From Escherichia coli (GTDB taxonomy: Bacteria; Pseudomonadota; Gammaproteobacteria; Enterobacterales; Enterobacteriaceae), in NCBI RefSeq assembly GCF_003334815.1, contig NZ_QOWO01000026.1: DNA of 62,123 nt; one strand, given 5' to 3'. The notes beneath the pieces were generated by a model. That model made no database searches and was not told the DNA's origin. It saw nothing but the letters and a program-made list of their open reading frames with translations. Position 1 is the first letter of the stretch. The number at the start of each line of letters is the position of its first letter. A program made the translations under genes and the position numbers. This document shows positions 9,595 to 12,747 of the stretch, in pieces.

Positions 9595-9642
9595 GGGAGA
9601 GGATCAGGGTGAGGAAAATTTATGCCTCACCCTCACTCTCTT
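9595..9642. repeat. GC-rich imperfect palindrome between gcvH and gcvP
   Basis: gggagaggatcagggtgagg ... cctcaccctcactctc inverted repeat; shares the AGGGTGAGG/CCTCACCC core with the element after gcvP. Confidence 0.5.
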
Positions 9643-9692
9643 CGTAAGGAGAGAGGTTCACAATTCACTGCACGTTTCAGGAACCATCGCTC

Positions 9693-12566
9693 ATGACACA
9701 GACGTTAAGCCAGCTTGAAAACAGCGGCGCTTTTATTGAACGCCATATCGGACCGGACGCCGCGCAACAGCAAGAAATGCTGAATGCCGTTGGTGCACAA
9801 TCGTTAAACGCGCTGACCGGCCAGATTGTGCCGAAAGATATTCAACTTGCGACACCACCGCAGGTTGGCGCACCGGCGACCGAATACGCCGCACTGGCAG
9901 AACTCAAGGCTATTGCCAGTCGCAATAAACGCTTCACGTCTTACATCGGCATGGGTTACACCGCCGTGCAGCTACCGCCGGTTATCCTGCGTAACATGCT
10001 GGAAAATCCGGGCTGGTATACCGCGTACACTCCGTATCAACCTGAAGTCTCCCAGGGCCGCCTTGAAGCACTGCTCAACTTCCAGCAGGTAACGCTGGAT
10101 TTGACTGGACTGGATATGGCCTCTGCTTCTCTTCTGGACGAGGCCACCGCTGCCGCCGAAGCAATGGCGATGGCGAAACGCGTCAGCAAACTGAAAAATG
10201 CCAACCGCTTCTTCGTGGCTTCCGATGTGCATCCGCAAACGCTGGATGTGGTCCGTACTCGTGCCGAAACCTTTGGTTTTGAAGTGATTGTCGATGACGC
10301 GCAAAAAGTGCTCGACCATCAGGACGTCTTCGGCGTGCTGTTACAGCAGGTAGGCACTACCGGTGAAATTCACGACTACACTGCGCTTATTAGCGAACTG
10401 AAATCACGCAAAATTGTGGTCAGCGTTGCCGCCGATATTATGGCGCTGGTGCTGTTAACTGCGCCGGGTAAACAGGGCGCGGATATTGTTTTTGGTTCGG
10501 CGCAACGCTTCGGCGTGCCGATGGGCTACGGTGGCCCACACGCGGCATTCTTTGCGGCGAAAGATGAATACAAACGCTCAATGCCGGGCCGTATTATCGG
10601 TGTATCGAAAGATGCAGCTGGCAATACCGCGCTGCGCATGGCGATGCAGACTCGCGAGCAACATATCCGCCGTGAGAAAGCGAACTCCAACATTTGTACT
10701 TCCCAGGTACTGCTGGCAAACATCGCCAGCCTGTATGCCGTTTATCACGGCCCGGTTGGCCTGAAACGTATCGCTAACCGCATTCACCGTCTGACCGATA
10801 TCCTGGCGGCGGGCCTGCAACAAAAAGGTCTGAAACTGCGCCATGCGCACTATTTCGACACCTTGTGTGTGGAAGTGGCCGACAAAGCGGGCGTACTGAC
10901 GCGTGCCGAAGCGGCTGAAATCAACCTGCGTAGCGATATTCTGAACGCGGTTGGGATCACCCTTGATGAAACAACCACGCGTGAAAACGTAATGCAGCTT
11001 TTCAACGTGCTGCTGGGCGATAACCACGGCCTGGACATCGACACGCTGGACAAAGACGTGGCTCACGACAGCCGCTCTATCCAGCCTGCGATGCTGCGCG
11101 ACGACGAAATCCTCACCCATCCGGTGTTTAATCGCTACCACAGCGAAACCGAAATGATGCGCTATATGCACTCGCTGGAGCGTAAAGATCTGGCGCTGAA
11201 TCAGGCGATGATCCCGCTGGGTTCCTGCACCATGAAACTGAACGCCGCCGCCGAGATGATCCCAATCACCTGGCCGGAATTTGCCGAACTGCACCCGTTC
11301 TGCCCGCCGGAGCAGGCCGAAGGTTATCAGCAGATGATTGCGCAGCTGGCTGACTGGCTGGTGAAACTGACCGGTTACGACGCCGTTTGTATGCAGCCGA
11401 ACTCTGGCGCACAGGGCGAATACGCGGGCCTGCTGGCGATTCGTCATTATCATGAAAGCCGCAACGAAGGGCATCGCGATATCTGCCTGATCCCGGCTTC
11501 TGCGCACGGAACTAACCCCGCTTCTGCACATATGGCAGGAATGCAGGTGGTGGTTGTGGCGTGTGATAAAAACGGCAACATCGATCTGACTGATCTGCGC
11601 GCGAAAGCGGAACAGGCGGGCGATAACCTCTCCTGTATCATGGTGACTTATCCTTCTACCCACGGCGTGTATGAAGAAACGATCCGTGAAGTGTGTGAAG
11701 TCGTGCATCAGTTCGGCGGTCAGGTTTACCTTGATGGCGCGAACATGAACGCCCAGGTTGGCATCACCTCGCCGGGCTTTATTGGTGCGGACGTTTCACA
11801 CCTTAACCTACATAAAACTTTCTGCATTCCGCACGGCGGTGGTGGTCCGGGTATGGGACCGATCGGCGTGAAAGCGCATTTGGCACCGTTTGTACCGGGT
11901 CATAGCGTGGTGCAAATCGAAGGCATGTTAACCCGTCAGGGCGCGGTTTCTGCGGCACCGTTCGGTAGCGCCTCTATCCTGCCAATCAGCTGGATGTACA
12001 TCCGCATGATGGGCGCAGAAGGGCTGAAAAAAGCAAGCCAGGTGGCAATCCTCAACGCCAACTATATTGCCAGCCGCCTGCAGGATGCCTTCCCGGTGCT
12101 GTATACCGGTCGCGACGGTCGCGTGGCGCACGAATGTATTCTCGATATTCGCCCGCTGAAAGAAGAAACCGGCATCAGCGAGCTGGATATTGCCAAGCGC
12201 CTGATCGACTACGGTTTCCACGCGCCGACGATGTCGTTCCCGGTGGCGGGTACGCTGATGGTTGAACCGACTGAATCTGAAAGCAAAGTGGAACTGGATC
12301 GCTTTATCGACGCGATGCTGGCTATCCGCGCAGAAATTGACCAGGTGAAAGCCGGTGTCTGGCCGCTGGAAGATAACCCGCTGGTGAACGCGCCGCACAT
12401 CCAGAGCGAACTGGTCGCCGAGTGGGCGCATCCGTACAGCCGTGAAGTTGCGGTATTCCCGGCAGGTGTGGCAGACAAATACTGGCCGACAGTGAAACGT
12501 CTGGATGATGTTTACGGCGACCGTAACCTGTTCTGCTCCTGCGTACCGATTAGCGAATACCAGTAA
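9693..12566 (+). CDS. gcvP: Glycine dehydrogenase (decarboxylating), glycine cleavage P protein
   Basis: 957-aa [25 protein letters not shown]...; PLP-dependent; operon position. Confidence 0.97.
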
Positions 12567-12588
12567 TTCACTGATTCGACTATTTTCT

Positions 12589-12610
12589 AAAGGCGCTTCG
12601 GCGCCTTTTT
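12589..12610 (+). terminator. Rho-independent terminator after gcvP
   Basis: aaaggcgc-ttcg-gcgccttttt hairpin plus T-run, ~25 nt after the stop. Confidence 0.7.
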
Positions 12611-12645
12611 AGTCAGATGACAAAGTACAAAAGTGCTCAGACAGT

Positions 12646-12747
12646 CCCCTCGCCCCTTTGGGGAGAGGGTTAGGGTGAGGGGAACAGGCCGGCACTGGCG
12701 CGAATATTTACCCTCACCCCGGCCCTCTCCCTGAAAGGGCGAGGGGG
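12646..12747. repeat. ~100-bp GC-rich palindromic intergenic element
   Basis: Left arm cccctcgcccctttggggagagggttagggtgagggg and right arm ccctcaccccggccctctccctgaaagggcgaggggg are near-perfect reverse complements; family name not assigned with confidence. Confidence 0.5.

Follow-up and report, generated by a model that had tools for sequence, protein, structure and literature searches.

The stretch of DNA examined here (the window; 62,123 nucleotides of the Escherichia coli contig NZ_QOWO01000026.1, assembly GCF_003334815.1) carries on its plus strand the gcvTHP operon of E. coli and then ygfF. A convergent neighbour, bglA, lies 3' of ygfF, the two genes facing each other. The identities of gcvT, gcvH, gcvP and ygfF agree with the MG1655 annotation. 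Two palindromic elements are found at this locus, one inside the operon and one beyond its end:

8067-9161, plus strand: gcvT
9185-9574, plus strand: gcvH
9584-9655: palindromic element between gcvH and gcvP (the gcvH-gcvP element)
9693-12566, plus strand: gcvP
12645-12748: palindromic element after gcvP (the post-gcvP element)
12833-13576: ygfF

Both elements derive from the BoxC repeat. The post-gcvP element is a canonical insertion, and the gcvH-gcvP element is an old, decayed pair that has kept its stems and, we propose, shapes the 3' end of gcvT-gcvH transcripts. We put the probability of this reading as a whole at roughly 0.6. What is new is modest, namely an unlisted, decayed BoxC pair, orthologous to canonical pairs elsewhere, at the dominant gcvT-gcvH 3' end. 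The ordinary part of the finding is the post-gcvP pair, which stands in the published catalogue.

The two elements and the BoxC family

BoxC is a 56-bp repeat present in 32-33 copies in E. coli K-12. It has since been described anew, first under the name of "potential intrastrand triplex" (PIT) elements and later as the TMECO triplex motif; Holder et al. 2015 equated the three (PMC4666352; earlier literature includes Bergler 1992, Bachellier et al. and Hoyne and Maher 2000, 2002). Each unit is composed of a pyrimidine block, a complementary purine block and a mirror-image second purine block, and inverted pairs of units are common. For TMECO the published consensus reads CCCTCNCCC N3-6 GGGNGAGGG N3 GGGNGAGGG; the published list holds 23 units, and five inverted pairs of a type A with a type B unit are present in K-12 (PMC4666352). 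From the 23 published units we built a BoxC hidden Markov model (HMM), using a hand-made alignment (MAFFT had placed the gaps 5'-terminally and not in loop 1).

A preliminary description of this DNA had noted inverted copies of one core in both elements, with GGGAGAGGG-type flanking blocks. Both features are present. The core AGGGTGAGG occurs three times in the window (9606-9614, plus strand; 9625-9633, minus strand; 12672-12680, plus strand) against a chance expectation of 0.22, and none of 100 shuffles reached three. The fourth arm, at 12712-12720 on the minus strand, reads GGGGTGAGG, one mismatch from the core. The same description had placed the elements in one small dispersed repeat family. 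This family is the known BoxC/PIT/TMECO family, as established by exact unit matches for the post-gcvP element and by comparative colinearity for the gcvH-gcvP element. The REP consensus (GCCGGATG... / ...CCGGCCTAC type) is absent from the E. coli gcvH-gcvP spacer and the ERIC core (AGTCACTTACTTATGTAAGCTCCTGGGG-type) from both E. coli elements.

The gcvH-gcvP element consists of 29-nt arms (9586-9614 and 9625-9653) that are 72% complementary and 10 nt apart. The three-block architecture is present as an inverted pair, with mirrored blocks on both sides:

9584-9614, plus strand: left decayed BoxC unit; pyrimidine block TCCTCTTC (9584-9591), purine block GGAGAGGA (9596-9603), purine block GGGTGAGG (9607-9614)
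9625-9655, minus strand: right decayed BoxC unit, inverted; on the plus strand it reads CCTCACCC (9625-9632), CTCTCTTC (9636-9643), GGAGAGAG (9648-9655)

The left unit gives an HMM match at 9595-9614 (12.4 bits, E 0.011 in the window), the third-best in the window, and the two halves together are the best matches after the two canonical units. Six of eight triplets in each unit are triplex-compatible, versus nine of nine in a canonical unit.

Several observations count against assigning this element to BoxC. The right unit matches the HMM weakly (9655-9625; 3.4 bits, E 7.5), and the HMM evidence alone would lack genome-wide significance. No match to the TMECO consensus, searched as a regular expression, was found in the element. 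A blastn search of 5,426 complete E. coli genomes placed the spacer at a single position per genome, with no similar copies, whereas the post-gcvP element matches at a median of 17 positions in each genome. Given the failed consensus and the partial HMM matches, we file the gcvH-gcvP copy as a decayed derivative and not as a canonical member, and the right unit is assigned on the basis of its colinearity with canonical right-hand units in other genera.

The gcvH-gcvP spacer across Enterobacterales

We compared 80 gcvH loci of ten kb each from other Enterobacterales species, from which 79 gcvH-gcvP spacers were recovered. In Enterobacter cloacae, E. asburiae and Pseudocitrobacter this spacer holds a canonical BoxC pair. 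Buttiauxella, strain RIT691 and a metagenome-assembled genome carry related copies, in some of which just one unit scores. The BoxC pairs of other genera share with the E. coli spacer its left flank and a conserved block on the other side:

9663-9692, plus strand: conserved block ATTCACTGCACGTTTCAGGAACCATCGCTC, with the gcvP ribosome-binding site; outside the repeat and near-invariant in Enterobacteriaceae whatever the upstream repeat

Between these flanks the E. coli element and the E. cloacae pair are colinear and identical at 57 of 74 positions (77%; z 15 against shuffles). Intermediate forms are an Escherichia-like genome (L002) with TTA loops, Siccibacter (L032) with a degenerate pair, and Pluralibacter with a single unit. 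In Cedecea, Phytobacter and others only the hairpin of blocks 1 and 2 remains, in keeping with the "palindrome effect" deletions reported in Holder et al. (PMC4666352). Ten of the 15 BoxC HMM matches in the 80 loci fall within the roughly 120-nt gcvH-gcvP spacer (9575-9692 in the E. coli window). On this comparison of sequences, which we regard as decisive, the gcvH-gcvP element is a decayed BoxC pair orthologous to the canonical pairs of other genera.

An independently evolved hairpin or attenuator internal to the operon could come to resemble BoxC through convergent evolution of G/C-rich purine and pyrimidine blocks. The failed consensus, the uniqueness by blastn and the low HMM scores would all be expected of such an element, and unrelated hairpins do lie at the same position in many Enterobacterales. 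It is very unlikely, however, that convergence would reproduce the block order, orientation and length of canonical pairs lying between the same flanks in several genera, together with the identity to the E. cloacae pair and the intermediates in L002 and Siccibacter.

Within E. coli, the gcvH-gcvP element is fixed: none of the 5,426 genomes lacks it. Among five haplotypes chosen to span the range of identity, polymorphic sites are confined to the central loop and the tetraloop of hairpin 3 (see below), and the stems are invariant.

Across the order, most of the 79 spacers have a stable hairpin directly 3' of gcvH. A T-rich tail follows the hairpin in at least 22; REP is present in about 14, ERIC in about seven and a BoxC-like sequence in about 13. 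Five loci have almost no spacer, and in Erwinia and Rosenbergiella it measures only 8-23 nt. REP/BIME sequences occupy the spacer in several Citrobacter, some Enterobacter, Lelliottia and others, the REP consensus itself being present in Citrobacter and Lelliottia. ERIC is found there in Citrobacter youngae CCUG 30791, C. koseri, Kluyvera, a Serratia marcescens strain and Providencia (ERIC core in loci L004, L006, L015, L072 and L076). The more distant genera have plain terminator-like hairpins, with a T-rich tail in Dickeya, Yersinia, Serratia and Photorhabdus. The Providencia spacer, of 445 nt, contains three tandem ERIC copies.

Tentatively, the spacer may need a stable hairpin for the T/H-to-P ratio. 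In Enterobacteriaceae an ancestral terminator-like hairpin would have been replaced repeatedly by whatever dispersed repeat inserted there (BoxC, REP or ERIC), and the E. coli pair would have been kept for its base pairing while the triplex sequence decayed. We give this broader scenario less than even odds.

RNA structure and the transcript 3' end after gcvH

The minimum free energy (MFE) fold of the spacer consists of three adjacent hairpins (-44.3 kcal/mol, z -4.35). A consensus fold of eight species retains all three, and five pairs are changed on both sides. An RNA 3' end mapped by Term-seq lies within this structure:

9584-9603, plus strand: RNA hairpin 1, in which the left unit's pyrimidine block pairs with its first purine block; in both the MFE and the consensus fold, with C-G to U-A changes on both sides
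9606-9633, plus strand: central RNA hairpin, AGGGUGAGG, 10-nt loop, CCUCACCCU; the loop (9615-9624) holds all haplotype variation of this hairpin and the stem is invariant
9636-9655, plus strand: RNA hairpin 3, predicted from the blocks of the right unit; past the mapped 3' end; tetraloop GTAA or GCAA, stem invariant
9637, plus strand: mapped RNA 3' end (Term-seq), 4 nt past the central hairpin; MG1655 3,049,097, minus strand

The end at 9637 has mean reads of 412,219 in LB at an optical density (OD) of 0.4 and of 171,112 in LB at OD 2.0, and it is listed in M63 too (Adams et al. 2021, PMC7815308, supplementary file 1). It is among the stronger 3' ends in the region, and its read count exceeds that of the gcvP terminator end about 11-fold (412,219 versus 36,065). 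The preliminary description had suggested, guardedly, that the element inside the operon could affect gcvH/gcvP stoichiometry through mRNA structure. The position of this end and its excess over the gcvP end fit that suggestion; that the central hairpin causes the end at 9637, and that this end sets the protein ratio, we infer.

The sequence of this old BoxC inverted pair has decayed while its base-paired stems were retained, leaving three predicted hairpins in the gcvTHP mRNA. In the mechanism we envisage, the central hairpin would either halt some of the RNA polymerases, although no canonical U-tract follows it, or block 3'-to-5' exonucleases. Because there is no U-tract, we favour an exonuclease block, following cleavage or termination downstream, over classical intrinsic termination; the data cannot separate the block from termination. 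Transcripts of gcvT-gcvH would then outnumber full-length gcvT-gcvH-gcvP transcripts, the gcvP-containing mRNA would be a minority, and P-protein would be made below the levels of T and H.

Other findings oppose a role of this kind. The central hairpin is followed by the tail CACUCUCUUCG and not by a U-tract, and a promoter and terminator scan reported no terminator in the spacer, nor any call in either element (the same scan overlooked the true gcvP terminator). In earlier work, as cited by Holder et al. (PMC4666352), PIT elements had neither terminator nor promoter activity. None of 12 single BoxC units in K-12 has a Term-seq 3' end at the predicted position. The presence of different repeats in different genera could simply reflect tolerance of insertions in this spacer, and polymorphism confined to loops could reflect a higher mutability of loops instead of selection on the stems.

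In a second explanation, the gcvH-gcvP element is a neutral insertion remnant and its 3' end is incidental to any stable hairpin, with no selected effect on gcvP. That the spacer holds BoxC, REP or ERIC according to genus and shrinks to 8-23 nt in Erwinia and Rosenbergiella suggests tolerance over need, and the published tests that Holder et al. cite gave no function for BoxC/PIT elements (PMC4666352). We nevertheless consider neutrality unlikely. Fixation is complete (5,426 of 5,426), versus 56% for the K-12-type spacer that holds the post-gcvP copy, the sampled variation is restricted to loops, pairing has been retained across genera despite decay of the sequence, and the 9637 end is among the stronger ones in its region.

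BoxC units as general makers of RNA 3' ends were considered and rejected as a rule, given the result for the 12 single units. Term-seq ends 4-5 nt past a BoxC unit are present at two of three multi-unit loci, hrpB-mrcB (L083; 164,636, plus strand) and lldD (lldD-trmL, L086; 3,781,065, plus strand). A Rho termination region is noted at the lldD 3' end, so that some BoxC hairpins may be trimming stops for Rho-terminated transcripts.

Compared with the rest of the BoxC/TMECO family, the post-gcvP element is the catalogued type A and type B pair #10 and #11, and the gcvH-gcvP element shares the three-block, inverted-pair layout. The latter differs in its 8-nt, less G-rich blocks, is off the consensus and is not among the 23 published units. 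It also differs in lying inside an operon at a strong RNA 3' end, in a family without a demonstrated RNA-level function. In a literature search, no paper linking gcvH with BoxC, ProQ or Hfq was found.

Other intercistronic repeats offer functional parallels. REP/BIME sequences at malE-malF reportedly act as mRNA 3' stabilisers within operons, an account that goes back to Newbury et al. in 1987. As there, the proposal for gcvH-gcvP involves a repeat-derived intercistronic hairpin, with the upstream part of the mRNA accumulating and downstream expression reduced, but the sequence family is unrelated and the E. coli gcv elements lack the REP consensus. ERIC/IRU elements are reported to modulate mRNA stability in Yersinia. 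Like the gcvH-gcvP element, they are enterobacterial palindromic repeats transcribed within operons, and they occupy this very spacer in other genera; they differ in sequence and size (about 127 bp) and are absent from the E. coli spacer. A further parallel is the internal partial terminator of Dickeya dadantii, where a transcript end after gcvH, with about 71% termination, is said in a transcriptome study to accord with E. coli studies (PMC9239193). The operon position is the same, and there too gcvT-gcvH transcripts are proposed to exceed those that contain gcvP. In Dickeya, however, the hairpin is followed by a T-rich tail, whereas that of E. coli is repeat-derived and without a U-tract.

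If the broader scenario given above is true, with the E. coli pair kept for its base pairing, the element is an exapted repeat and provides the first RNA-level role of any BoxC element. No function has been assigned to the family in the thirty years since it was described, and published promoter and terminator tests were negative. Should the hairpin be causal, it would explain how the large P-protein can be lower than T and H from a single promoter. It would also mean that the copies of functional interest can be decayed ones, which the published searches by consensus do not see. The locus provides a concrete, testable case, with a BoxC-derived hairpin at the dominant 3' end of the upstream operon transcripts.

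Two further Term-seq ends lie near the start of the operon. One, at about 8011 (MG1655 3,050,723, minus strand), is about 56 nt upstream of the gcvT start and has 80,101 reads in LB at OD 2.0; the other, at about 8132 (MG1655 3,050,602, minus strand), is about 65 nt inside gcvT and has 105,625 reads in LB at OD 0.4. These gcvT-leader ends hint at premature termination or processing.

The composite repeat after gcvP and its surroundings

The post-gcvP element is intergenic and has 39-nt arms (12646-12684 and 12708-12746) that lie 23 nt apart. It had been described beforehand as a near-perfect palindrome of about 100 bp placed after the terminator; size and position past the terminator are correct, while the arms, at 82% complementarity, are imperfect. 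The features of this region are:

12589-12611, plus strand: gcvP intrinsic terminator and mRNA 3' end; AAAGGCGC TTCG GCGCCTTT and then a T run, with the hairpin at 12589-12608 (inverted-repeat scan)
about 12616-12799: composite BoxC repeat of ~180 bp, made up of a left flank, a type A unit, a conserved 27-nt spacer, an inverted type B unit and a right flank
12647-12682, plus strand: BoxC/TMECO unit of type A (TTA loop), TMECO #11; exact match to Table 1 of PMC4666352; HMM 43.9 bits
12710-12745, minus strand: BoxC/TMECO unit of type B (CCG loop), TMECO #10; exact match to the published sequence; HMM 37.5 bits

The TMECO consensus is matched at 12647-12681 (plus strand) and 12711-12745 (minus strand). 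Units #11 and #10 form an inverted type A and type B pair, a layout like that of four other K-12 loci, and the supplement of Holder et al. (PMC4666352) places them between ygfF and gcvP. In a blastn search, positions 12636-12756 matched 83,843 places in 5,409 genomes, with 21 in K-12.

The K-12 pairs at fepB-entC and alx-sstT have the same flanks on both sides and the same 27-nt spacer, and a yijF-gldA copy in strain TUM14759 is 88% identical over window positions 12629-12796. Since flanks and spacer are conserved among copies, the repeated unit is the ~180-bp composite and not two independent 36-nt units. With regard to a miniature inverted-repeat transposable element (MITE), no clear target-site duplication was seen at the composite, whose ends were analysed no further. 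Comparison with relatives bounds the insertion to about 12612-12830. Identity of the composite with the old "RSA" repeat (about 150 bp, six copies) was considered, but the copy numbers fit poorly.

None of the 80 other Enterobacterales has BoxC in the region after gcvP. The ygfF gene is ancestral at this position, and in Citrobacter and Pseudocitrobacter, which keep the gcvP terminator, ~15 nt separate the terminator from the ygfF start codon; E. coli has ~205 extra nt. Judged from these alignments, the post-gcvP copy is a recent insertion that separated ygfF from the gcvP terminator in the Escherichia lineage. The junction is variable among strains. The K-12-type gcvP-ygfF spacer is present in 3,027 of the 5,426 genomes, and in Nissle 1917 both ygfF and the BoxC pair are missing, the homology breaking just past the terminator, about 5 nt before the composite. 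This variability agrees with the published association of the motif with strain-variable regions (PMC4666352). In place of the segment from the gcvP terminator to the bglA stop codon, Nissle 1917 has 121 nt of unrelated sequence, which include a REP-like hairpin (window 12612-13632 versus L081 2591-2712).

Such a junction invites an explanation at the level of DNA, in which an intrastrand triplex or cruciform would stall replication or promote recombination and so create rearrangement hot spots. Canonical units form triplexes in vitro, as shown for the post-gcvP sequence type, and motif loci are more variable among strains (PMC4666352). Eight of nine triplets in the post-gcvP unit are compatible, the gcvP-ygfF junction is variable, and the Nissle 1917 break lies about 5 nt from the composite. 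We find DNA-level action improbable all the same: in vivo footprinting gave no support for stable triplex formation, the copy inside the operon is down to six of eight compatible triplets per unit at a locus that is completely stable, and an association with variability does not show cause.

The mapped gcvP mRNA 3' end at 12611 (MG1655 3,046,123, minus strand; a "primary" end in Term-seq, 36,065 reads) leaves the post-gcvP pair essentially outside the gcvTHP transcript. These data contain no evidence of any gcv role for it. The pair behaves like a neutral or selfish repeat at a junction that varies among strains. The MG1655 RefSeq record has no annotation at its position. An Rfam scan of both elements gave no match at the gathering score; only sub-threshold microRNA-like hairpins were reported, which we judged to be due to chance.

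Two other palindromes in the window were recorded. Between ygfF and bglA, at 13590-13622, there is a REP-like palindrome, CTGACCGGATGCAACAAGTATTGCATCCGGTAC, and a "primary" Term-seq 3' end of bglA is located there (MG1655 3,045,144, plus strand). At 38209-38234, the perfect hairpin CCCTCTTCCCTGCGGGAAGAGGG resembles BoxC blocks 1 and 2 and may be either a BoxC remnant or a terminator; the HMM matches it on each strand (E 0.06).

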